Positions 1-38,853 of a stretch of 39,161 nucleotides of DNA are shown one piece after another. The stretch comes from a virus (Duplodnaviria; Heunggongvirae; Uroviricota; Caudoviricetes). The position numbers and the translations under genes are program-made. The notes under the pieces were generated by a model. The model worked only from the letters and a program-made list of their open reading frames with translations. It ran no database searches and was not told the DNA's origin. The stretch lies in the IMG/VR virus record IMGVR_UViG_2706794670_000014. One strand, written 5' to 3'. Every line of letters begins with the position of its first letter. Position 1 is the stretch's first letter.

Positions 1-459
1 TTATTCAGTCGGCAGTGCTACGCGCCAGGGGAGCAGTTCGCCGACCCGGTTTATCGGCCAGTCGGCTATGACGTCAAGGACATAGCGGAGGTAGCTTTCT
101 GGCTCCACTCCGTTCAGTTTGCACGTCCCGATCAGGCTGTACAGCAGCGCTCCCCGCTCTCCTCCATGATCCGAACCGAAGAACAGGTAGTTTTTGCGGC
201 CCAGACTGACCATCCGCAACGCATTTTCAGCGATGTTATTGTCCGCCTCAGCCCAGCCATCATCTGCATAGTACGTCAGCGCCGGCCACTGGTTCAGGGC
301 ATATGCGAACGCTTTCGCCAGTTCTGAGTGTCGCGACAGGGTTTTCATCTTTTCACGCAGCCAGCTTTCCAGGGATTTCAGCAGCGGTTTCGTTTTCAAC
401 TGACGTTCGGCAAGGCGCTGTTTCAGCAGGAAGATGTCGTCAGAAGAGATGTCGTTCAT
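1..459 (-). mobile_element. IS66-family transposase (TnpC-like) gene, 3' fragment only, N-terminally truncated
   Basis: The 152-aa translation ends in motifs typical of IS66 transposase C-termini (LNQWPAL, DNNIAENALR, LGRKNYLF, NRVGELLPW). The in-frame sequence upstream of 460 loses the resemblance and hits a stop at 520-522. Confidence 0.7.
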
Positions 460-564
460 AAGCCCGTATTTTACCGGGCTTATTCTGTGACAACCAGGAT
501 AAAGAGATTTACAGCATGGTCAGGGAGGTCAGCAGCCGCTTAGGCTGTCTATAGCGCGGCGATT

Positions 565-650
565 TTTTTGATACCGATTTGCATTTCATTTGATACCGCT
601 GAAAAACGCCGATACGCAACTTATTTGATACTAAATCGGCGCTTTTCTTT
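565..650. repeat. Prophage right-end region with three direct copies of a TTTGATACCG-type motif (putative transposase-binding sites R1-R3) and a terminator-like hairpin
   Basis: TTTGATACCG at 567-576 and 589-598, TTTGATACT at 624-632. Hairpin CGCCGAT (607-613) / ATCGGCG (635-641) followed by a T-rich run 642-650. The same motif occurs inverted at the other prophage end. Confidence 0.6.
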
Positions 651-677
651 TGAGTTTTAGAATGAGTTTTTAAGCGT

Positions 678-1415
678 TCATTCACTCTCTTTCAAACCAG
701 TTTTAACTGTTTGTGGTTTTGGGTAAGGCTGGACTTTGAATAGCTTTGTGTTAAGGCGTTTTCTGGCTCTCTTGTCCAGAAACCGGATGTAACGAAACTG
801 ACGGAATTTATGAACACTGGCTCTGTCGATATTAGCCCGCAGATGTTCACCTCGCTGTCCTCCTCGTTTGATTGCATTCTTGCAAATCTCGTGATACCAC
901 TCGCCATCAAGTTCATAGAATGTTGTTTCATGACTGCCTACATAATCAAAATTGCTTGCCTGGTACACGACACCAAGACAGCCACAACGCTCATCTGCAA
1001 ACGACTGAACCCACTGCACCTGCGGATAAAGTTGTCTGATTAGTTTGAGCGCGTAACTGATTGCCCTTGATTCGGAGTTTCTCGGCATACAGTCATGCAG
1101 CCATAACCGGTTAAGCTCCATATATTCGCGGTTCTGCGTGCCAGTTACGACGCGTGCACCATTGTTTGGATTAAGGGCATAACCCCATTGCATTACGCCA
1201 ACCAGCTCCCGTTCTGAAAATATGCCCAGATGAAGGTAGGAATTATTTACGAAACGATGGCTGTAATGTTTATTGACGACGACCAGCCGGGCCAGCCAGC
1301 AACTTATTGTCTCAACCCGTAACTCACGGGAGCCATAACCGACGATATTGTCGTTATAGTGAATAAGTTCAGGCGTGCTGATGATACGGGATGTAACTTG
1401 CTTTCTGTTCCCCAC
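678..1415 (-). CDS. mom: Mom-like DNA modification protein, assigned by position directly downstream of and overlapping com; start codon uncertain
   Basis: Long ORF 678..1610 in a different frame from com. Com's stop at 1369-1371 lies inside it, as in Mu where com overlaps the mom start. A GTG at 1415 preceded by AAGGAAA would give about 245 aa, close to the size I recall for Mu Mom. Confidence 0.55.
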
Positions 1416-1569
1416 GACAGGATTTCCTTGTGTATGTGGGGTGCTCTGTGGCGCTCTGAGATGTGATTTGATTGAGGGTTTTACAGCGCGGACATTTAAC
1501 TTCCAGATAACTGAAGCTGGCTCGTGCCAGTAGCTTGTTACAATGTCGGCACCGTATGTTTCGATACAT
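1369..1569 (-). CDS. com: Com-like zinc-finger translational activator of mom
   Basis: The translation from the ATG at 1569 contains [10 protein letters not shown]...EVKCPRCK, matching the Cys4 zinc-finger pattern of Mu Com. AGGAGG lies upstream. Confidence 0.75.
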
Positions 1570-1610
1570 GGCCGCATAACCTCCTGCTTTGTTGTTGATA
1601 TCTTTATCAC

Positions 1611-1705
1611 TCAATCGATCGACAAAAACGATCGATTTGATTTATTTAATTGATACAACAAATAACACGAAATGTCATTAGCGAAAATTTATGAGTTTGA
1701 TCACT
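1611..1705. promoter_or_regulatory. Putative Dam-methylation-sensitive control region upstream of com-mom (cluster of GATC sites in AT-rich DNA)
   Basis: GATC at 1617-1620, 1630-1633 and 1699-1702 within about 130 bp upstream of com. The Mu mom promoter is known to be controlled through clustered GATC sites. Confidence 0.4.
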
Positions 1706-1825
1706 AATTTTAAACGGTGCTGTAACGCATAAGTGCTGAATGATTGTACATTTGAATACCGCAAAGCAAACAAATCAACTAATTTATAGAAGTCAATTGG
1801 TTAATTGCCAGCGTAAGAGGCTGCT

Positions 1826-2119
1826 ATGGACAATCATGTAACGACGAGAAATCGAAAAATGATTGAAAATGCGGAAATCTATAATGATTATTTTTCCGAT
1901 TATTCAGATGCCTGCAAATACAGTTCGAGTGCGGGAGAGTTCATATGCTTCAACTTTTTTATTAAATCTTATGTTTTTCCTCCACAGCAAGAAGATGGAG
2001 GTGTGCCACCTCCTGAAATCACTTTGCACCGTATAGCCTCCGTCTCAATGATGGAGCAACAGGCTAATGAGCTGTATAGCATTCTGGGAACGATTCTACA
2101 AAAGCGTGAATCGGACTAA
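1826..2119 (+). CDS. Hypothetical 97-aa protein in an AT-rich region, oriented opposite to the lytic genes
   Basis: ATG at 1826 with AAGAGG six nt upstream. No similarity recognised. It diverges from com across an AT-rich spacer. Confidence 0.45.
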   Translation: MDNHVTTRNRKMIENAEIYNDYFSDYSDACKYSSSAGEFICFNFFIKSYVFPPQQEDGGVPPPEITLHRIASVSMMEQQANELYSILGTILQKRESD

Positions 2120-2286
2120 TGATACCGGTTCATTTGCCTGCCCGGATGGGGAAGCAGGATTGACTGCTCCATAAGCAGCTATATTTCTGAATACGAAATA
2201 CTATCCAGCGATTACATATGGCTGGATAGCGGCAAAGATGTTTTCATTAGTGTCAAACCGGCAGAGGACACCACCGGTTTGTATTG

Positions 2287-2541
2287 TTACATCATGGTAC
2301 TGTCAGTTCCGGGCTGAGCCGGGTCTGGTTGCTCTGGCTGCGCGTCGGTTTTCGGCTCATTATCAGCATCACTGGCCGCAACTGCTGGCCCAATAAGTTT
2401 TGCCAGCACTTCATCAACGTAAGTGTCGATTTGTGCCTCAAAATCCTTGCGGACCTGCGCTTTCAGCAACTTATTTACTTCACCGGAATACAGTGCCTGT
2501 TTTACCAGGTCTTCAGTGACGGTGCCTTTAATTTCTGGCAT
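2287..2541 (-). CDS. Hypothetical 84-aa protein with an acidic, Pro-rich C-terminus
   Basis: ATG at 2541 preceded by AAGGAGG at ideal spacing. Lies downstream of the esterase-like gene. Confidence 0.55.
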   Translation of the reverse strand: MPEIKGTVTEDLVKQALYSGEVNKLLKAQVRKDFEAQIDTYVDEVLAKLIGPAVAASDADNEPKTDAQPEQPDPAQPGTDSTMM

Positions 2542-2576
2542 GTATATCCTCCTTATGCGGGAATAAAGCCCTGCAA

Positions 2577-2759
2577 TCAGGGCTGGGTCGGGTCTTTTGG
2601 GAGCGGAGTTACCTGCGCTGTTTTACTGAGTTTTTCAGCTGCTGCGTCCTCAATTTTGCGGCGAACATAATTTCTGATGGCCTTATAACCACCACTCACC
2701 AGATATAACGCACATACTGCCGTGCAGAAATACAATAAAATAAGCTGTAAAAATGTCAT
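2577..2759 (-). CDS. Hypothetical 60-aa small membrane protein (one N-terminal transmembrane helix)
   Basis: ATG at 2759 preceded by GGGAGGG. Hydrophobic stretch FLQLILLYFCTAVCALYLV followed by a basic tail. The ORF track begins it at an upstream TTG. Confidence 0.5.
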   Translation of the reverse strand: MTFLQLILLYFCTAVCALYLVSGGYKAIRNYVRRKIEDAAAEKLSKTAQVTPLPKDPTQP

Positions 2760-2855
2760 TATCCCTCCCAATTATTGACATGGTGTTGACACCGGTAATA
2801 TCTGTTAGGTAAAAAGGTGCACTGCATTTTTTGCTTTGGATATAACGATCTTTTT

Positions 2856-2897
2856 GCCGCCGGTTTCTTGTTTTCCCTTACCGGCGGCATTTTTTTA
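2856..2897 (+). terminator. Rho-independent terminator-like hairpin with T-run on the plus strand
   Basis: GCCGCCGGT (2856-2864) / ACCGGCGGC (2880-2888) with a 15-nt loop, followed by ATTTTTTTA. The T-run is on the plus strand only. Confidence 0.55.
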
Positions 2898-2903
2898 TCC
2901 TGC

Positions 2904-4958
2904 TTACGCGTTATTCACTTCCACCACGATACTGTCAATCAGTACCGGGTAAGTCGCATTTTTAGTGATATCGGTCACGCGCAACTTGTCTGCCGTAAAC
3001 GTGCCGACCGGAGACTGCGACAGCATGAATGGTGTCCCGTCCTTACCATCAATGACCGGCGTCACCTCAATACTGTTGTTACCGGCAAAACGGAAGCCCA
3101 GCGTATGCCATTCGTTATTAAATGCGCCGAATGACCCCAGCTTCGTGTTCTGCGCCGTGTTTCCTTTGTGATACATCACGTTAAGGTCTGTGGCATCGCT
3201 CTGTACGTAGAACGATGCCAGCAGGTTATGACCGGCATTTCCTTCCAGAGTAACCCCTTGCGGCAGGGCAGAAACCGGCCAGTACAGCGCCAGTGCGTAC
3301 TGATTAGCCGTAAGCGCGCCATCGAGTTTAAAACGACAACTGACAAGACCACCTTTACCCAGCAGGTCCGCACCATTACCAGCATCATGCTCAAGGTACC
3401 AGGGGGCTCTTCCTGTTTCCTTGGTCAGTTTCATTGCCTTACCCCCGCTGGCTCCGGCATCATCCACGATTTGAGCCTTGCCACCTCCGGCAGCCCAACC
3501 CTGTGGTGTCAACCGTCCTTCAGACTCAGATGCCCGGTAAGCAAATAGCGTACTCATCGTCGTGGTGTCTGCGGGTGGCGTGGACGGTTTTGATGGTGTA
3601 TCAGGTGACGGCTTCTCATCCGGTGGTGTCACGGTCTGCCCACGCATCAGTTCAGCCGTGCGCCCTGCATGGAGCATAATAGCTGAGGCCAGACGGTCTG
3701 AAATGACGCCCCTGCGTGCCCATGAGCTGAAATGGCTGTCACGCTGTGTCGAAACAAAACTGCCCTGGGTTCGGGATGCTGCACCGTAATACCCGACAGC
3801 CACAATATCCGGGTCTTCCGCCGGAGCATTCGTTGGCGTGCTCTGTCCATTCTCATCCGTCAGGAACGGTACAAAGAAAATTTTCTGTGCTTCCTTGCCT
3901 TTGTAGCCACCGTATACTGCCTCATATTTATCGGTGCCAGCGTTTTTCCAGTAATACGTGGTATCACCGCAAATCCACGGCACCGTGGTGGCATTTCCAC
4001 TCACGCACTGCGCAGCAAGCGGAGCCAGGTCAGTTCTGAACTGCTGAACCATGGCCGTGAATAAACTATTATGCTGCTGGCTTCCTGAGGCAAGGTCTGC
4101 CTCTCCCTGCATCCAGACCACAGCCAGAAGTTTGTTTTTCGGGTTTTTCGCCAGCGCGACTTTGGTGCGGCTTACCAGGTCCTGATACAGAGGTTTACCG
4201 GCCCCCCAGCGTGAAGAATCAGCGGAAGCACCGCTGGCCTCACTGAATGAGCCGTCGGCTCCAGTGGTGAATGCTGACCCGCCACGACAACAGGGCACCA
4301 GAAGTATCCCGGCATTCTGTGGGATATAGGGAAGCAGTTTTTTGGCAATATGCAACCCCTGACCGACAGTCCCGTACTGGCCTTTTGCCAGATCAGCTTT
4401 CGGGTGGTTTATCCCGCTCATATCCTGAACATCATGCAGGCAGTGGTCTGCCGGAATGATGTCGTTGTATGTACACGACGTACCGTTGGGCGTTACCGTA
4501 CTGCGGCGTGCCAGTTGCTTAATGCGTGGGTCCGGGCGGTCAAACGAATCCGGTAACGGCAGCCCCTCGCCGTAGGCCATGCCATTTGACTGACCCGCGA
4601 GAATGACAACAAAGTAATATTCCGGCTCTGAACTGCTGCCATTCGTGCTACCGGAAGGCCCGGCGTTATCCGGTGCATTCCAGTCGGAGGGCGTGAGCGT
4701 TCCGGCCACGTCAGATGTGATTGGAATGATGCCAGTCACGCCTGAACTGGTGATTTCTGCACTGGGATTACCGGATACCGGCATTACCCATAATGGCTCT
4801 TTCGTGCTGAAGCGGATCACGCAGTCTGCGAAGGTGATCCCCCCTTTATTACCCGAAGGGCGGAAAGGGCTTTCAATAAATGCCACCGTGCCACCGGCAA
4901 CCTTGACTGAAAACTCTCCGGGCATGGCGGAGAGCATTTTCCACTTGGAGTCTGACAT
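2904..4958 (-). CDS. 684-aa protein with a sialate O-acetylesterase (SASA / SGNH hydrolase) domain, resembling prophage NanS-p-type esterases; likely cargo
   Basis: Conserved blocks VVILAGQSNGMAYGEG and VVWMQGEADLA match the catalytic-serine and second signature blocks of the SASA family. Long N- and C-terminal extensions. Sits between gin and com-mom, where Mu has no gene. Confidence 0.65.
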   Translation of the reverse strand: MSDSKWKMLSAMPGEFSVKVAGGTVAFIESPFRPSGNKGGITFADCVIRFSTKEPLWVMPVSGNPSAEITSSGVTGIIPITSDVAGTLTPSDWNAPDNAGPSGSTNGSSSEPEYYFVVILAGQSNGMAYGEGLPLPDSFDRPDPRIKQLARRSTVTPNGTSCTYNDIIPADHCLHDVQDMSGINHPKADLAKGQYGTVGQGLHIAKKLLPYIPQNAGILLVPCCRGGSAFTTGADGSFSEASGASADSSRWGAGKPLYQDLVSRTKVALAKNPKNKLLAVVWMQGEADLASGSQQHNSLFTAMVQQFRTDLAPLAAQCVSGNATTVPWICGDTTYYWKNAGTDKYEAVYGGYKGKEAQKIFFVPFLTDENGQSTPTNAPAEDPDIVAVGYYGAASRTQGSFVSTQRDSHFSSWARRGVISDRLASAIMLHAGRTAELMRGQTVTPPDEKPSPDTPSKPSTPPADTTTMSTLFAYRASESEGRLTPQGWAAGGGKAQIVDDAGASGGKAMKLTKETGRAPWYLEHDAGNGADLLGKGGLVSCRFKLDGALTANQYALALYWPVSALPQGVTLEGNAGHNLLASFYVQSDATDLNVMYHKGNTAQNTKLGSFGAFNNEWHTLGFRFAGNNSIEVTPVIDGKDGTPFMLSQSPVGTFTADKLRVTDITKNATYPVLIDSIVVEVNNA

Positions 4959-5032
4959 CGTCTTTTCTGCCTGTTTCTGAATTAAACAGAGTCAGAATAG
5001 CGACCGCTGAAAAATATGTGTTTTGCGGAAAT

Positions 5033-5063
5033 TCAAAAAAGCGTCACGGTACTTTTGGTGACG
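5033..5063 (-). terminator. Rho-independent terminator at the 3' end of gin
   Basis: On the minus strand: stem CGTCAC / GTGACG with a 10-nt loop, followed by CTTTTTTG. Confidence 0.55.
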
Positions 5064-5616
5064 GAGCTGGTGAGGCAGGAAAATAACGATAAAGGGTGGA
5101 AAGGCCAATATCAAATATCAGTGCGATTTGTTTACGGGACTCGCCATTAGCCAGCAAACGGGCGATTTGCTCCCGCTCTTTCTCTGTCAGTTTCTGAGGT
5201 CTGCCGCCATGACGCCCCTGAGCACGGGCAGCAGCAAGACCCGCGCGTGTACGTTCAATAATGAGTTCCCGCTCCATTTCCGCCAGCGCGCCCATTATAT
5301 GGAAAAAGAAACGTCCCATGGGAGTGGATGTATCAATATTGTCCGTAATGCTGCGGAAGTTAACGCCGCGTTGCCGGAGTTCTTCTGTTAAAAGGACAAG
5401 GTGCTGCATACTGCGTCCAAGGCGATCCAGTTTCCAGACCAGCAGGGTATCCCCTGGCCGGAGTCGCTTTAATGCGCGTTTAAGTCCGGGACGCTCCCTT
5501 GTCTTACCGCTTATTCTGTCTTCGAAAAACAGCTCACATCCTGCACATTCCAGCGCATTTCTTTGTAGCGCCGTATTCTGGTCATTTGTTGACACCCTGA
5601 TATACCCAATCAGCAT
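5044..5616 (-). CDS. gin: Serine DNA invertase of the Gin/Hin/Pin family
   Basis: N-terminus MLIGYIRVSTNDQ with the catalytic serine context, resolvase-like core and a C-terminal HTH. Adjacent to the tail-fibre invertible segment. Confidence 0.9.
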   Translation of the reverse strand: MLIGYIRVSTNDQNTALQRNALECAGCELFFEDRISGKTRERPGLKRALKRLRPGDTLLVWKLDRLGRSMQHLVLLTEELRQRGVNFRSITDNIDTSTPMGRFFFHIMGALAEMERELIIERTRAGLAAARAQGRHGGRPQKLTEKEREQIARLLANGESRKQIALIFDIGLSTLYRYFPASPAPSPKVP

Positions 5617-5652
5617 ACGATTTCCTTATTATAAAAAGCCGGAATTGTCGCA

Positions 5653-6045
5653 TGAGGAATAAAACAGAGTTAATCCTGGCTTTCCTGAAAACCTCGGTTT
5701 ACGGGAAACGGTAAACAGGGCGGCGAATGCTCTGCCATCGGACGGCACCGCCGTTGCCGCGAATAGACTCGCCACCCCAAGAAATATTAATGGGGTTCCC
5801 TTTGACGGGACGCAGGACATAAACATCACTTCTGGTATAACACAGCAGGATGCGGATTCCCGATATATCCAGGATATCAGGCTGGGAGCAGAGAACAGGC
5901 AGGTAATGTACGGTGGGGCATATTACTCTGCGTACGGTAATGTTATGGCAGGCCTGCAGATTGACAGTAAAGTTGATGCTTCAAACGATTTTATAGCATT
6001 CAGACCCCTGCAAAAATTAGTCGGAGGTACATGGATTACGGTATC
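5653..6045 (+). CDS. Startless alternative tail-fibre C-terminal cassette (S'v-like), expressed only after inversion
   Basis: Open frame from the stop at 5650-5652 to TAA at 6043-6045 with no start codon near its 5' end. It encodes tail-fibre-like motifs (ANRLATPRNINGVPFDGTQDINITSG) and begins at the gix site. Confidence 0.6.
5672..5697. other. gix/hix-like recombination site (crossover site for the invertase)
   Basis: TTCCTGAAAACC-TC-GGTTTACGGGAA: two 12-bp inverted half-sites around a 2-bp core, very similar to the gix/hix consensus. Located at the start of the startless fibre cassette next to gin. Confidence 0.7.
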
Positions 6046-10216: not shown

Positions 10217-11330
10217 AGCTGATCCCCTGTTTTTTCATCTGCTGGCGAATAAAGGCATCAACATCGTCACCGGAACCACCCCGGCCCTTACTGTCCGGCT
10301 CTGCCGGAACGATAAAGCCGTCACGCGGTGCCAGTACCAGCCGGGTGACTTCCCCGTTATGTTCATCAAGTAAAAACTCCACCTGACAGACCAGCAGTTC
10401 AGTCTGTTCTATACCGAAACGCAGGGCTGAAACACCGGTCAGCAGATTGACATCCCATAACCGGCCATCATCCCGGAACCAGCCACGCACGGTGGCAGAA
10501 AACCGTTCTGAACGGGCAATCGCACGGCGCATTTCACGCAGGGCACGCTGCCGTGCACCGGTGGTGTCTGTCTGTTGATCGGCGAGGATGATTTTCGACC
10601 GGTAGCGGCCGATCTGCTCATCACTGATGACGCCCACAGGTGCTGCCAGACGGGCGGCGGATTCGCTGTCTCCCCGTTTGCCACCACCGCGCCCGTGTCC
10701 CCGGACACGGTATTCGCTGTATCGTCCTCGCCAGTCCGTGTTGTAATCGGCATCAAGCAGGTTATCTCCCAGCACCAGTCTGTCCGTCTGCTGGCTTCCT
10801 GCCTGGGTGAACACCAGATCGCCGTCAGCATTACTGGTCACCAGCACCCCGCGATGCCGGGCAGCACGGGTCAGCGCATCCGCCACGGTTTCTGAGTTTT
10901 CCAGCGTAAAAGAGCTGAAGGGGCGTGCAGCCGTGTCGTCGTTAACCTGCCAGCGCACGGCTATCCCGAAGGGCGCACATAAATCTGCGGCAATCTGTGC
11001 CAGCGTCCGGTTGCGCCACTGGCTGCCGGGATGGATGGCGGCACAGTCCACCAGGTCGCCGGTTTTATCCCGACCGCTGATGCTGATCTGATGACGGGTT
11101 GCACTGATCCGCTGACTGACCTGATCCAGCCAGCCACTGATGACCGTCTGCCCGTTAATTCTGAGCGTCAGGGACTGACCGGTTCGCAGGGCTGAGGGGA
11201 TGCGCTCACCGGGCAGCATCAGCCCCAGTTCAAACGACCCGGCCAGATGCTCCAGCGAGCGACGGACGCTGACCGTCAGCCAGCCGGAAAAAATACTGCC
11301 ACCGATATACAGTTCAATCCTGCTGCTCAC
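10206..11330 (-). CDS. Baseplate hub, late control gene D-like (Mu gp44 / P-like)
   Basis: 374 aa in the syntenic position after the DNA circularisation protein. Confidence 0.65.
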   Translation of the reverse strand: MSSRIELYIGGSIFSGWLTVSVRRSLEHLAGSFELGLMLPGERIPSALRTGQSLTLRINGQTVISGWLDQVSQRISATRHQISISGRDKTGDLVDCAAIHPGSQWRNRTLAQIAADLCAPFGIAVRWQVNDDTAARPFSSFTLENSETVADALTRAARHRGVLVTSNADGDLVFTQAGSQQTDRLVLGDNLLDADYNTDWRGRYSEYRVRGHGRGGGKRGDSESAARLAAPVGVISDEQIGRYRSKIILADQQTDTTGARQRALREMRRAIARSERFSATVRGWFRDDGRLWDVNLLTGVSALRFGIEQTELLVCQVEFLLDEHNGEVTRLVLAPRDGFIVPAEPDSKGRGGSGDDVDAFIRQQMKKQGISFDE

Positions 11331-28545: not shown

Positions 28546-29046
28546 TCAGACTTTCGGCAAATCGTAACGACATAACCATTCATCCGCCGAACGGCGGGCC
28601 TCAAGACCGGGGAGTTTTACCCCCTTTGAATAAATCCAGCGGATATACTGCTTACAGGACGCGGGCATCTGCCCGGCATTGATAAGGCGCAGGAGCGTGG
28701 AGTTGCGAAAGTTCGTTTCACCGGCCCAGAAAATCCAGGAGGCCAGCGCCACCGTCTGACCACGGGTAAGCGGCACCTGAACATGACGATCGATAGCCGC
28801 AAAGGCCCATTTCATGTCCTTTTCCAGCAGCTCCAGACACTCTTCATCAGTTTTTGTCATCCCCGGTTTCACATCCGGGCCGGTATGGCCGTAACAGATG
28901 GTGGGGGTGCCGGTGGGATCAATGTACGTGGTGTTTTCTTTCCCTTCCCAGTAGCCGGTGTAGTGCGTGGCAATGGTGAACGTCCCGGCTCCGGCCAGAA
29001 CAAGGGCAATCAGCTTTTTACGCAGGGGTGCGGGGAGTTTTGGCAT
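28546..29046 (-). CDS. SAR endolysin (lysozyme with an N-terminal signal-arrest-release domain)
   Basis: N-terminal hydrophobic LIALVLAGAGTFTIA followed by a lysozyme-like catalytic region (YIDPTGTPTICYGHT). Confidence 0.8.
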   Translation of the reverse strand: MPKLPAPLRKKLIALVLAGAGTFTIATHYTGYWEGKENTTYIDPTGTPTICYGHTGPDVKPGMTKTDEECLELLEKDMKWAFAAIDRHVQVPLTRGQTVALASWIFWAGETNFRNSTLLRLINAGQMPASCKQYIRWIYSKGVKLPGLEARRSADEWLCRYDLPKV

Positions 29047-29527
29047 TGTTACGCTGTCTCATGGTGTTCTCTGAGTCAGCGTAACCGTGAGGAAAAGGGG
29101 GCAGGANNNNNNNNNNNNNNNNNNNNNNNNNNNNNNNNNNNNNNNNNNNNNNNNNNNNNNNNNNNNNNNNNNNNNNNNNNNNNNNNNNNNNNNNNNNNNN
29201 NNNNNNNNNNNNNNNNNNNNNNNNNNNNNNNNNNNNNNNNNNNNNNNNNNNNNNNNNNNNNNNNNNNNNNNNNNNNNNNNNNNNNNNNNNNNNNNNNNNN
29301 NNNNNNNNNNNNNNNNNNNNNNNNNNNNNNNNNNNNNNNNNNNNNNNNNNNNNNNNAGCAGGTTCAATCCCCTGACGGTGCAGTTCAGCACTGATCACAT
29401 CAACCAGGTCCCGCAGCGTGCCGGGCCAGTTCTTTTTCAGCTCATCATCAGGAATATCATCCAGACGGTCAATCAGCGCGTGCAGCTGTTCGCTGTCACC
29501 AAACATGCTCATCTGTGTTTCAGCCAT
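29018..29527 (-). CDS. Mor/C-family transcription activator (N-terminus visible, remainder masked; true stop unresolved)
   Basis: The N-terminal 57 aa resemble the Mor N-terminal dimerisation region. N-run 29107-29356 covers the rest, so the ORF-track end is not reliable. Confidence 0.5.
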   Translation of the reverse strand: MAETQMSMFGDSEQLHALIDRLDDIPDDELKKNWPGTLRDLVDVISAELHRQGIEPAXXXXXXXXXXXXXXXXXXXXXXXXXXXXXXXXXXXXXXXXXXXXXXXXXXXXXXXXXXXXXXXXXXXXXXXXXXXXXXXXXXXXLPPFPHGYADSENTMRQRNNAKTPRTPA

Positions 29528-29597: not shown

Positions 29598-30110
29598 TTA
29601 ACGGGGGAATGATTTTTCATACAGCCTGCAAACACGCTCATAACTCATCACTGCACGTTCCGACATATCCAGGGCTGCCAGCATTTTGCGGCGGTGCCAG
29701 CGTTTGAGACGCTCCAGCACATCAGAGGCCAGCGCGGGTTGTTGCTCCAGCCACTGCCAGTTAGCCACACCTTCGCCGTCGTTCTGCGCGGCCGTCTGCG
29801 ATTTCACCCAGCGGTTAAGGGCCGTTTCCCCGCCATCAGAGATAAATCCCTGCCGGTGCATCACTTTCCAGATGGCGCGAATTTTGGCGGTCACCGTACC
29901 CGGTTTTAAGGCCCGGTTAACCGGCTTCTGACGCACTTTAAAACCGCGTTTTTTGAAAACATCCAGCACGCGGGATAACTCACCGGGTGACATATCACGG
30001 CAACTGGATTTGCCGGTGGCTGCCAGCAGCGCGGATGTATAGGTATCATGGTCAAGCTGTAGATCGCGTTTTGCGACATGTATTAAGGTAATCAGGGAAG
30101 CGCGATTCAT
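29598..30110 (-). CDS. GemA-like early protein (Mu gp16-like)
   Basis: 170 aa immediately upstream of the Mor-like gene, as gemA is in Mu. Confidence 0.5.
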   Translation of the reverse strand: MNRASLITLIHVAKRDLQLDHDTYTSALLAATGKSSCRDMSPGELSRVLDVFKKRGFKVRQKPVNRALKPGTVTAKIRAIWKVMHRQGFISDGGETALNRWVKSQTAAQNDGEGVANWQWLEQQPALASDVLERLKRWHRRKMLAALDMSERAVMSYERVCRLYEKSFPR

Positions 30111-35801: not shown

Positions 35802-37889
35802 TCAGGCCAGCGGATCACTTTCTTTTAATTTCGCTTCGAGCAGTTGCAATCCCCGCTGGAAATTACGCTCGTATTCTTCATCAGGTTCATCGTCAGCGAC
35901 CGGTTGCTGAACGGTCACCGTATTACCCACAGGGCGGTATATGTTTTCCAGCCAGGGCTCCTGCGGCTTGTGCTCCAGCACGTTGACAACCTCATCCTCG
36001 GCATCACGGATTTTTTCCTCTGCGCGTTTACGCATGCCTTTAAGGCGCTGCTGCTGTTTGTAGTATTCCGCGCTGACAGGGAAGGCTTCGCGTTTATTGC
36101 CGTCCCATACCGCCTCGCAAATCACGCTGCCATCCGGGCGGCGCACGGTAATTCGTTCGGCATCATGAATGTCATAGCTGATAAGTACCTTACGGCCATG
36201 CTCGTCACGCAGCTCGGGCGCGTAGTAAATATTATTCAGCCAGCGTATTTCACAGCGTCTTACAGGGCGCTCCACCATCGGCCGGAACATATCCCGCAGT
36301 TCAACATCGGACAGCCATTCAATTTCCGTGTCCTCTTCCGCCAGGCGTTTTTTTCTGAACTCCGCCGGGCTGTAATGTTTACCGTTCGGCTTCATGGGTA
36401 ATTCATCGTGCGGCCGGTTGTTGTACCACTCAACACCGTCACGAATGGCATCAATCAGTTCAGACCAGGACGGTAAATCACGCATCGCTGACTGCTGCCG
36501 GGCGTTCAGCCGTTTGCCCTGTTGCAGGGCACTGAATGCCGAGCGTAAATCGCGGTTGGTTTTACGTAACGTCTCGCGATCTGCTCCTTTCCCGAAATAG
36601 GTGCGGTATTTACGGGCTATGCGCATCGGTAATGTGCGGTTAAGCCGTTCGATAATGCCCCGTCCCTGCGGATTACCGGCAATCCCTGTCGGGTGATTAA
36701 TCCCCAGTCGTGGCAGTATCCCCACAATCTCCTTATCCAGGACGTCGGCGGTTTCCCCGGAGCCATTATCCGAGTAATACAGAAACGGTTTGCCATGATG
36801 GCGAATACCGTGCTGTATGGCACCGGCTACGGCGAAAACATTTTCAGCCAGGTCAAGGCTCCAGCCCACCACAAAGCGCGTGCCACCGTCGATAACAAAG
36901 GTCACTTCCGGTGCGAATGGCCGCCCGTGAACCGGGTGCGCGCATTTCAGCTTCATGCCGTGACCGTCACCAATCCAGACATAATTCACCGGCATTCTGG
37001 ACCAGTCGCGGCGCGTGAATCCCTCAAGCTGACGGTATTCACTGCCAGTTACCCGGCCTTTTTGTTTCACCACTTCCGGCAGTTTCTTCATTGCGCGGCG
37101 AATGGTGTCATAAGAGGGCATGATATCGAGCATATAAGGCTCATCAGCGTGCCGGTGCTGCCATTCAGCAACAAAATCCTCGTAAGCCTCGGTCATTGGT
37201 CGGCCGTTTGACTGGCGATACTGCGCCAGAAATTCGGGCAGCCAGTTAATATCTTCGGCTTTTATTTCCTGGCGTTTACCCGGTGCCAGTAAAAGCAGGC
37301 GTTCAGCGGCGTTCTGTGCCTTGTTAAAGGCCGCAATCCAGCGTTTCAGCGTGATTTCACTCAACGCGCGGCTGTTTCCCTTTTTGGCGTTCGCCGTCTC
37401 AACCATTGCCACAATGCGCTCGTCCAGTTGTGATCGTGCCAGGCTGTTAACGAGGAACCGGATAGCTTTAGCGCAGCTGAAACCGGGTTGTTGCGTGAAT
37501 TTCAGCACCTCACTGACGATCGCAATGCGTGCGTCTGCCACCTGGCGCTGGTTTTCAGTCAGGGCATTGAGGCGTTCGACCATCAGTTGTGGTGATCCGC
37601 GATATGCCTCCACCGCATCAACCACGGCAGACGAGCGTCTGGCCTTTGTCACCACCGGAGCCGGTGATTCATCGGCTTTTTGCGTCATCAGTTGCAGGGC
37701 ATAACGTTCGCGTAATGCCTGCTGTGTCACTTCAGGTAAACAGTCAATGCTGTATTCAAAACCTTTAGCGCCTTTCTTGCGGCGTCTGCTGGTTTCGCTG
37801 GTTGCATACTTCCTGATTGAATAGCGAACGCCTTGCTCCGTTCCCGGCATCCCCGGTAATCCAACCAGTTCTTTAACTGAAGCAAACAT
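35802..37889 (-). CDS. A: Mu A-like DDE transposase
   Basis: 695 aa with an N-terminal winged-helix-like region, a DDE core of Mu-transposase type and an acidic C-terminus. Followed by B. Confidence 0.9.
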   Translation of the reverse strand: MFASVKELVGLPGMPGTEQGVRYSIRKYATSETSRRRKKGAKGFEYSIDCLPEVTQQALRERYALQLMTQKADESPAPVVTKARRSSAVVDAVEAYRGSPQLMVERLNALTENQRQVADARIAIVSEVLKFTQQPGFSCAKAIRFLVNSLARSQLDERIVAMVETANAKKGNSRALSEITLKRWIAAFNKAQNAAERLLLLAPGKRQEIKAEDINWLPEFLAQYRQSNGRPMTEAYEDFVAEWQHRHADEPYMLDIMPSYDTIRRAMKKLPEVVKQKGRVTGSEYRQLEGFTRRDWSRMPVNYVWIGDGHGMKLKCAHPVHGRPFAPEVTFVIDGGTRFVVGWSLDLAENVFAVAGAIQHGIRHHGKPFLYYSDNGSGETADVLDKEIVGILPRLGINHPTGIAGNPQGRGIIERLNRTLPMRIARKYRTYFGKGADRETLRKTNRDLRSAFSALQQGKRLNARQQSAMRDLPSWSELIDAIRDGVEWYNNRPHDELPMKPNGKHYSPAEFRKKRLAEEDTEIEWLSDVELRDMFRPMVERPVRRCEIRWLNNIYYAPELRDEHGRKVLISYDIHDAERITVRRPDGSVICEAVWDGNKREAFPVSAEYYKQQQRLKGMRKRAEEKIRDAEDEVVNVLEHKPQEPWLENIYRPVGNTVTVQQPVADDEPDEEYERNFQRGLQLLEAKLKESDPLA

Positions 37890-38307: not shown

Positions 38308-38853
38308 ATGAACAAGCAAACAACAACATCTCTTTCTTTTCCTGGTGGTAGAAAAGAAAGCATTGCTGAGCGTCTGAAAAGGCTGATTGGCTCCCGCAGC
38401 GTCAGAGCTGCAGCAAGAGATTGGGGGCTTTCATTTTCAACACTAAACAATTATCTGTCTCGTGGCACTGAGCCATCCTTAAGTGTCGCCCTTCAGATTG
38501 CGTCTATCGAAGGAGTAAGTGTTGAGTGGCTATGTGGATTCAGTGATGCATCACAAGTGAATCGGTGTGAGATCAAGGAAAATCAAGATGAAAGCAAGAA
38601 GATAATTATGACGATTATCAGCGCACTTGATGAAAAAGACTTAGAGCAGCTATCGAAAAATTTGGTTCTGAATGGAGCCAAGTACTTAGCTCGGTTGTTA
38701 GAGCCTGAAAATCAAGATCTAATCCGCTTAGAAGGAAGGAAAAGAATAGCTGCATTACAGCTTGAAGGTATGTCTGACGAACGCGTCAGAGAGATTTTGG
38801 AAGAAACTGAGAGAAGTCGCAAATCTAACGCGGTAGAACCAAAAGCGGGTTAA
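38308..38853 (+). CDS. Prophage repressor with a CI-type N-terminal HTH
   Basis: Divergent from ner-A-B. N-terminal HTH region (SIAERLKRL...GLSFSTLNNYLSRG...LQIASIEGVSVEWL). Confidence 0.7.
   Translation: MNKQTTTSLSFPGGRKESIAERLKRLIGSRSVRAAARDWGLSFSTLNNYLSRGTEPSLSVALQIASIEGVSVEWLCGFSDASQVNRCEIKENQDESKKIIMTIISALDEKDLEQLSKNLVLNGAKYLARLLEPENQDLIRLEGRKRIAALQLEGMSDERVREILEETERSRKSNAVEPKAG

Follow-up and report, generated by a model that had tools for sequence, protein, structure and literature searches.

A candidate minimal Dam-responsive GATC pair upstream of com-mom and an adjoining exchangeable cargo gene in an Escherichia coli Mu-like prophage

The window analyzed here, the whole 39,161-nucleotide stretch of IMG/VR record IMGVR_UViG_2706794670_000014, represents, in reverse orientation, a Mu-like prophage of E. 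coli. Near the prophage right end, the minus strand carries mom, encoding the DNA adenine modification enzyme, and com, encoding the zinc-ribbon translational activator of mom. The N-terminus of the com product aligns with Mu Com (MKSIRCKNCNKLL in Mu), and a Shine-Dalgarno sequence (GGAGG) is located at 1580-1584. Beyond com, an open reading frame (ORF) of 97 amino acids (aa) lies on the plus strand. The original prediction, made from the sequence alone, described the interval between com and this ORF as AT-rich, and the interval (256 bp) indeed has a G+C content of 30-37%, compared with about 50% elsewhere. The same prediction noted a cluster of GATC sites upstream of com-mom, in keeping with the Dam-dependent control known for Mu mom, and on the opposite strand a gene in a place typical of lysogenic-conversion or exclusion functions. 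The positions of all features are listed in Table 1.

The first 109 bp past the com start codon are 84-92% identical in the window and in the prophages of M18, CI5, and 2012EL-2448, and the sequences diverge beyond this point; megablast homology to 233 E. coli genomes ends near 1664. The com-proximal block defined in this way is shared by every cargo variant in this family of Mu-like phages from E. coli and must contain the com-mom promoter. The three GATC sites predicted in this region were found at 1617-1620, 1630-1633, and 1699-1702; however, they do not all lie within 90 bp of com, since their distances to the com ATG are 51, 64, and 133 nt. GATC is under-represented in the window as a whole, with 110 occurrences versus 146 expected. 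Clusters of three GATCs within 90 bp or less were observed twice, against a mean of 2.9 obtained by random placement of the window's 110 GATCs, and a 13-bp-spaced GATC pair appeared by chance in 26% of random trials. The bare cluster count is within chance, so the significance of the sites derives only from cross-phage comparison. The other cluster of three GATCs, spanning 42 bp at 11085-11126, is located inside a coding region.

For this comparison, 80 mom loci were taken from IMG/VR, and com was located in 46 of them. A GATC-N9-GATC pair was present just upstream of com in 12 of the 13 lineage representatives and was the sole such pair in each locus; likewise, 1617/1630 is the only 13-bp-spaced pair in the window, where it is embedded in a perfect 9-bp inverted repeat, AATCGATCG-N7-CGATCGATT. 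Among eight lineages with diverged flanks (Mom identity to the window of 78-81% or less), all eight GATC columns were 100% conserved, versus a mean majority of 59% in the other columns. The 9-nt spacer between the paired GATCs differed in every one of these lineages, and the outer bases of the palindrome also varied (tGATCa, cGATCa, and aGATCa). Since only the GATC tetranucleotides are invariant and the spacer is free, selection appears to act on the Dam target itself and not on a longer protein-specific palindrome. Many lineages possess an extra third GATC, 18-19 or 31 nt further upstream, which is missing in the family of the window. The window's own third site, 1699, is offset from the pair by 69 bp and lies beyond the 109-bp common block, and therefore inside the swappable cassette; it is found in the window and CI5 only, with AATC at this place in M18 and 2012EL-2448, and M18- and O157-type alleles lack it. 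It falls outside the conserved element and is probably incidental. The interpretation of the three GATCs as equivalents of Mu region I was rejected on these grounds: the third site is 69 bp off, non-conserved, and within the cargo cassette.

The relation of the pair to the Mu control region was examined by direct alignment. Transcription of Mu mom is under the control of Dam and OxyR and requires the activator C (PMC3378877). In Mu (AF083977), GATC sites occur 109, 91, and 78 nt before com, the first of them inside gin, which ends 94 nt before com. The window's AATCGATCG-N7-CGATCGATT aligns directly with Mu AATCGATCG-N7-AGATCGATT, that is, with Mu GATC 2 and 3. The 15-mer spanning the pair matches the OxyR half-site consensus ATAGnTnnnAnCTAT at 7 of 10 positions, the same as in Mu, and ranks in the top 0.15% of window 15-mers. 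Comparison with the gin-to-mom interval of Mu thus returned counterparts of GATC 2 and 3 and none of GATC 1, the C box, or the T6 spacer. Accordingly, the proposed Dam control of com-mom is supported by Mu homology for the sites 1617 and 1630 and not for 1699, and its geometry is not that of Mu. From these sequence relations, the regulatory half of the locus is best described as a minimal form of the methylation switch known from Mu mom, with a spacing of its own.

Two mom promoter architectures were noted among the Mu-like phages compared (loci L049-L052, L054, and Mu). In the Mu-type architecture, the GATC pair lies 76-91 nt before com, with a C-box-like dyad between them; in the short type, the pair lies 51-67 nt before com and directly adjoins a -10 hexamer. 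Loci L049-L051 have the same short layout as the window, with good -10 hexamers (TATACT and TATAGT) 7-9 nt after the pair, and their com leaders contain a conserved hairpin. Immediately downstream of the GATC pair, the sequence varies among alleles. A window-wide search for other copies of the block upstream of the pair, or of CGATCG-N7-CGATCG, as a shared activator site revealed none.

The sequence beyond the common block behaves as an exchangeable cargo slot. Its flanks, common to all variants, are the first 109 bp past com and the last ~35 bp before the DUF826 gene. This com-mom type was found in 233 of 5426 complete E. coli genomes, and the window's cassette in 18 of the 5426, always in the chromosome; no cassette match was obtained in plasmids or in deposited phages. 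In M18, the slot (L003 4069-4596) encodes a protein of 175 aa that has a zinc ribbon at its N-terminus and one transmembrane helix; its C-terminal domain matches phrog_13160 (unknown function), and the zinc-ribbon matches were sub-threshold. In O157-type strains, the slot content is degenerate. In the window, the ORF is followed by 167 nt of hairpin-rich non-coding DNA. The hairpin inside the cassette may possibly serve as a transcript end or stabilizer, and the hairpin in the common right flank, CAAACCGG-N12-CCGGTTTG, is likely a bidirectional terminator.

The 97-aa ORF and its good ribosome-binding site (RBS), AAGAGG with a 5-nt spacer, were confirmed as predicted. The CI5 allele is 81.6% identical to the window ORF at the nucleotide level and 79% at the protein level; the ratio of nonsynonymous to synonymous substitution rates (dN/dS) between the two was 0.36 for the whole ORF and 0.25 when only residues 13-90 were considered. 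All nine IMG/VR viral contigs that carry the ORF have it intact, and it is intact and identical in most carriers. Prophages with the gene occupy many different sites in the chromosome, an indication that the phages are active. The 86-aa version annotated by the Prokaryotic Genome Annotation Pipeline (PGAP), starting at ATG 1859, was rejected, as the CI5 allele has Thr at that codon; together with the conserved RBS, this supports the 97-aa start. By these sequence criteria, the ORF is a genuine gene under selection. No relative was found in Mu or in other deposited Mu-type phages, in accordance with the earlier statement that it does not resemble Mu genes. It was also correctly described as pointing in the repressor direction at a prophage end: it shares the strand of the helix-turn-helix (HTH) repressor-like gene and lies ~1.3 kb from the right end. 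The claim that the AT-rich region drives its expression is unproven, since the promoter scan gave no acceptable promoter.

The encoded protein is acidic, with an isoelectric point of 4.7 and a net charge of -6, which argues against simple nucleic-acid binding. It had no match in Pfam, PHROGs, NCBIfam, or PADLOC. A HMMER search of 1.84 billion representatives returned one distant relative, and profile searches yielded 34 homologue clusters, all from Enterobacterales and all unnamed, with 23-31% identity to the window protein. An initial AlphaFold2 model, built from six near-identical sequences with a predicted local distance difference test (pLDDT) score of 62, was discarded and replaced by one based on a 15-sequence alignment (pLDDT 74.8). 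The latter predicts a disordered N-terminus (residues 1-22), three strands (26-34, 37-50, and 64-76), and a C-terminal helix (77-96). Foldseek searches with the model found nothing annotated, the BFVD result being one unnamed 93-aa match. The homology and structure searches called for by the original prediction therefore provided distant unnamed homologues and no annotated family or fold. Searches of PDB sequences with profiles of the 97-aa family and of the protein designated C below gave nothing, and no mention of accession WP_000571916 was found in the literature.

Every distant homologue examined was the first gene (A) of a conserved three-gene cassette, A-B-C, encoding proteins of 97-107, 80-95, and 123-131 aa, respectively. 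The B proteins are acidic and have a C-terminal D-x-W-L/I-M motif, and the C proteins have a GRNKFSDD...HCLWHYH motif; the sequence pattern of C gives a tentative impression of a RelE/ParE-like toxin fold. The cassette is situated directly downstream of the lambdoid CI repressor gene in Yersinia and Pantoea, which is the rex position; near tail-fibre and invertase genes at the ends of prophages in Klebsiella, Raoultella, Enterobacter, and E. coli; and, within the tail module of a myovirus, next to an Mrr-type (Mrr_cat) nuclease. Some Klebsiella loci have genes for a retron reverse transcriptase and HNH proteins near A-B-C. B and C had no match in Pfam or NCBIfam and matched only PHROGs of unknown function, and neither A, B, and C nor the alternative cargo matched the defence models of PADLOC-DB 2.0. 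The Klebsiella A matches the window by tblastn (E = 1.5e-7). No similarity to B or C, remnants included, was detected anywhere in the window; the proposal that B/C remnants lie downstream of the ORF was rejected for this reason, and the copy of A in the Mu-like phage is hence solitary. Homologues of the 97-aa protein also occur in phages without com-mom. On the basis of these data, A-B-C is a candidate for an undescribed prophage conflict system.

Table 1. Features of the com-mom end of the prophage, other window genes mentioned in the text, and related cassette loci.
Feature	Position	Strand	Evidence or context
IS66 transposase gene, C-terminal fragment (3' part)	1-459		Flanking host DNA, left of ~550
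mom (DNA adenine modification enzyme), 245 aa	678-1415	-	Pfam Mom 7.4e-78; PHROG Mom-like 2.6e-83; PGAP coding sequence in identical locus L001
com (zinc-ribbon translational activator of mom), 66 aa	1369-1569	-	Pfam Zn_ribbon_Com 6.5e-13; PGAP annotation of identical locus
com-proximal regulatory block	1570-1678	-	Common to all cargo variants of the family
GATC-N9-GATC pair in perfect 9-bp inverted repeat	1613-1637	none	GATC at 1617 and 1630
Cargo cassette	~1679-2252	+	AT-rich upstream region, 97-aa gene, downstream hairpins; blastn flank mapping, four alleles
Third GATC	1699-1702	none	Inside cargo cassette, not conserved
RBS AAGAGG	1815-1820	+	5 nt before ATG 1826; GAGAGG in CI5 allele
97-aa ORF	1826-2119	+	Acidic protein, uncharacterized Enterobacterales prophage family
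12-bp-stem hairpin	2201-2229	+	Downstream of ORF, in cassette; kept in centroid RNA fold, region z = -2.8
Hairpin of common right flank	2254-2281	none	Between convergent ORF and DUF826
DUF826 gene	2287-2541	-	Pfam DUF826 6.4e-16; right-hand neighbour of slot
DUF826, DUF1378, and NanS-p-like SASA/DUF6645 esterase module	2287-4958	-	
Gin-type invertase	5047-5616	-	
Mor/C-like gene	29021-29527	-	38% identity to Mu C residues 2-51, E = 1e-7; no Pfam match
Transposase A	35805-37889	-	
HTH repressor-like gene	38308-38850	+	
A-B-C loci in relatives	L012 6001-6951; L007 6001-6931		Same layout in L015, L021, L105, and L106

The prophage right end was placed at ~550 (TATAGCGCGGCG...), and the same end was found in prophages at different chromosomal sites. 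Three copies of a TTTGATAC repeat at 563-640, near this end, are probably transposase-binding sites. The gene order inward is mom, com, the slot with the 97-aa ORF, the DUF826, DUF1378, and NanS-p-like genes, the Gin-type invertase, the tail genes, transposase A, and the HTH repressor-like gene. The NanS-p-like sialate O-acetylesterase (SASA and DUF6645 domains) comprises 684 aa; its gene and those of DUF1378 and DUF826 are located in the interval bounded by com and the Gin invertase, and this trio is typical of the late region of lambdoid and Shiga toxin phages. The transposase and late genes are on the minus strand, and the 97-aa ORF is on the plus strand, like the HTH repressor-like gene. 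One Mor/C-like activator gene was found in the window, between gemA (29598-30110) and a lysozyme gene (28549-29046), whereas Mu has separate Mor and C. A Rfam scan of window positions 1-6000 matched no RNA family.

Taken together, the locus is more probably than otherwise a combination of a conserved Dam-sensitive operator at com-mom and a separable adjoining cargo slot holding a real gene. In such an arrangement, the operator within 1570-1678 would be the GATC pair 1617/1630, lying in a 15-bp element that resembles an OxyR half site. By analogy with Mu mom and P22 gtr, a host protein, most likely OxyR, would bind unmethylated or hemimethylated DNA and keep com-mom off; full Dam methylation would exclude this repressor and allow the phage late activator, for which the Mor/C-like gene is the candidate, to turn the operon on. 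The pair is ~10 nt upstream of the best -10-like hexamer and would thus extend over positions of about -21 to -37 and overlap the core promoter. This placement suggests repression by direct promoter occlusion, in contrast to Mu, where the sites are upstream of the C box. Transcription start, OxyR binding, and activator dependence are all elements that we infer. The slot holds the gene for a small acidic protein with a predicted beta3-alpha fold, probably oligomeric, and this gene is a solitary and long-diverged copy of gene A from the three-gene prophage cassette. Its product is most likely a moron-type accessory that serves in conflicts of the phage with its host or with other phages, by exclusion, defence, or counter-defence, and that would be expressed in lysogens and act by protein or nucleic-acid binding without catalysis; it is not dedicated to mom regulation. 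The lysogenic-conversion or exclusion role suggested earlier thus agrees with the context, namely the swap slot, the occurrence in 18 versus 233 genomes, and the position of homologues after cI and at prophage ends, from which the function is surmised.

Several observations weigh against this combined reading. On the regulatory side, GATC 1, the C box, and the T6 spacer of Mu are all absent; the only copy of TTAT-N6-ATAA in the window is at 2553, outside the com-mom control region. OxyR binding to the pair would follow from the 7/10 half-site match as its sole basis, and the second candidate half site is weak (6/10 by eye). The best -10-like hexamer, GATAAA/TAAAGA, is poor and not conserved among E. 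coli alleles, and the consensus scan revealed no minus-strand promoter between com and the ORF. For the ORF itself, a scan for a sigma-70-like promoter returned only hexamers that overlap the start codon and are not conserved in CI5; a manual search near the GATC pair for a divergent promoter like momP2 also gave nothing convincing. Some genomes have frameshifted or truncated copies (P0011-P0013), and the 97-aa protein has no match in defence-system or other family libraries. Since B and C are absent from the window, conclusions drawn from the cassette may not transfer to the solitary gene.

Alternative explanations were weighed against the same data. The repeat AATCGATCG-N7-CGATCGATT could be the operator of a dimeric phage regulator, either Mor/C-like or a repressor, with the GATCs a by-product of the palindrome and no role for Dam or OxyR. 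The perfection of the 9-bp dyad speaks for it, as do its overlap with the -35 region in the short architecture, where an activator or repressor site is expected, and the lack of a Mu-type C box elsewhere in the region. Nevertheless, this account is unlikely: the GATC tetranucleotides alone are invariant while the outer bases and the spacer vary, which fits a Dam target better, the element has a single occurrence in the window, where several sites would be expected for a late activator, and in Mu these sites are known targets of Dam and OxyR (PMC3378877). The alternative at the far end of the scale, that the ORF is a decaying, functionless relic of a formerly complete cassette and that the three GATCs cluster by chance, appears very improbable. 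This account would explain the lack of significance of the raw GATC cluster, the absence of B and C from the window, the frameshifts in some alleles, and the degenerate O157-type slot; yet it is opposed by the dN/dS of 0.25 in the core residues 13-90, by the intact and identical ORF in most carriers, by the want of any leftover of B or C, and by the conservation of the GATC pair far above that of its flanks.

The remaining alternatives concern the role of the protein. It may be a counter-defence decoy, a solitary A that binds or titrates the partners of host A-B-C systems and so allows the transposable phage to evade them. Inhibition by orphan copies of system components carried on phages is an established theme; linkage to B and C is seen in all other family members, only the copies in Mu-like phages being solitary, and the protein is small and acidic with a predicted dimerization-type fold. 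However, A-B-C has no PADLOC or Pfam match and no assigned function, the identity to cassette A proteins is only 23-31%, and the gene is remote from the early region and directed away from the lytic operons, so a decoy role is quite unlikely. A local function as a divergent regulator of com-mom, with a PC4/Pur-alpha-like protein acting on the intergenic region or on mom mRNA, is less probable again: in over 90% of related prophages, this control block occurs without the gene or with unrelated cargo, a net charge of -6 is atypical for nucleic-acid binders, and homologues exist in phages without com-mom. A more far-reaching proposal, to which we would assign a low probability, is that the slot is a dedicated hotspot of conflict genes in E. 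coli Mu-like phages and the 97-aa protein a neofunctionalized orphan of A-B-C, acting either as a decoy or inhibitor of that system or as an exclusion factor on its own; its expression might then be inverse to that of mom through competition between divergent promoters, as with momP2 in Mu. The Dam-sensitive operator with a separable cargo gene remains the preferred explanation.

The outcome is unsurprising to a specialist and resolves no long-standing question. Nonetheless, what stays constant in the mom methylation switch of Mu-like phages appears to be one GATC-N9-GATC element, as opposed to the three sites of Mu, and this element is found in at least two promoter geometries. It can serve as a simple sequence rule by which Dam/OxyR-type control may be recognized in the genomes of phages, and the window promoter is a natural minimal variant for studying how two Dam sites may suffice. 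The analysis also delimits a small and as yet unnamed protein family, together with a conserved cassette of three genes in classic lysogeny-gene positions (after cI, at prophage ends, and by restriction-like nucleases); being absent from current defence catalogues, A-B-C is a reasonable candidate for experimental screening.

Among known switches, Mu mom is the closest. The flanks AATCGATCG...GATCGATT and the 13-bp spacing are as in Mu GATC 2 and 3, and the com-mom operon is immediately downstream of the pair. In Mu, C binds a 16-bp dyad centred at -43.5, and in Mu-type mom promoters, this dyad lies between the GATC sites and the -10 hexamer, which is preceded by a 19-bp T-rich spacer (PMC2582627). 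By contrast, the window promoter has no TTAT-N6-ATAA C box, ACCACA -35 hexamer, or T6 run. Mu has three clustered sites (18 and 13 bp spacing), of which only the 13-bp pair is conserved here; Mu GATC 1, located 18 bp upstream, is replaced by GTATC after an insertion of 6-7 nt. The pair is also 27 nt closer to the com ATG (51/64 nt here versus 78/91 nt in Mu). Finally, gin adjoins the promoter in Mu-type phages, with no slot, whereas the cargo slot and the nanS-p/DUF1378/DUF826 genes intervene here.

The second reference system is the gtr operon of P22, in which GATC pairs at -110/-97 and -46/-33, each 13 bp apart, are located inside 15-bp OxyR dimer half sites, and GATC methylation abolishes OxyR binding (PMC2909390). 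The window likewise has a GATC pair of exactly 13-bp spacing within 15 bp of sequence similar to an OxyR dimer half site, and the promoter-proximal pair of gtr overlaps the promoter (-46/-33), as the pair here probably does (~-37/-24). Unlike gtr, which has two pairs and three half sites and shows phase variation, the window has one pair and no evident second, and its target is a late lytic operon.

For the 97-aa protein, the COMM domain and PC4-like beta-sheet-plus-helix folds were the systems compared, with the beta1-beta2-beta3-alpha topology as the COMM criterion. The protein differs from RexA and RexB of lambda, as well as from catalogued exclusion and defence proteins, in having no sequence or fold similarity to them. 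In genetic setting, it nevertheless resembles lambda rexAB and morons: the gene is oriented opposite to the lytic genes, is AT-rich, has its own RBS and a putative terminator, and is variably present, and its distant homologues are found directly downstream of cI, as is lambda rex.
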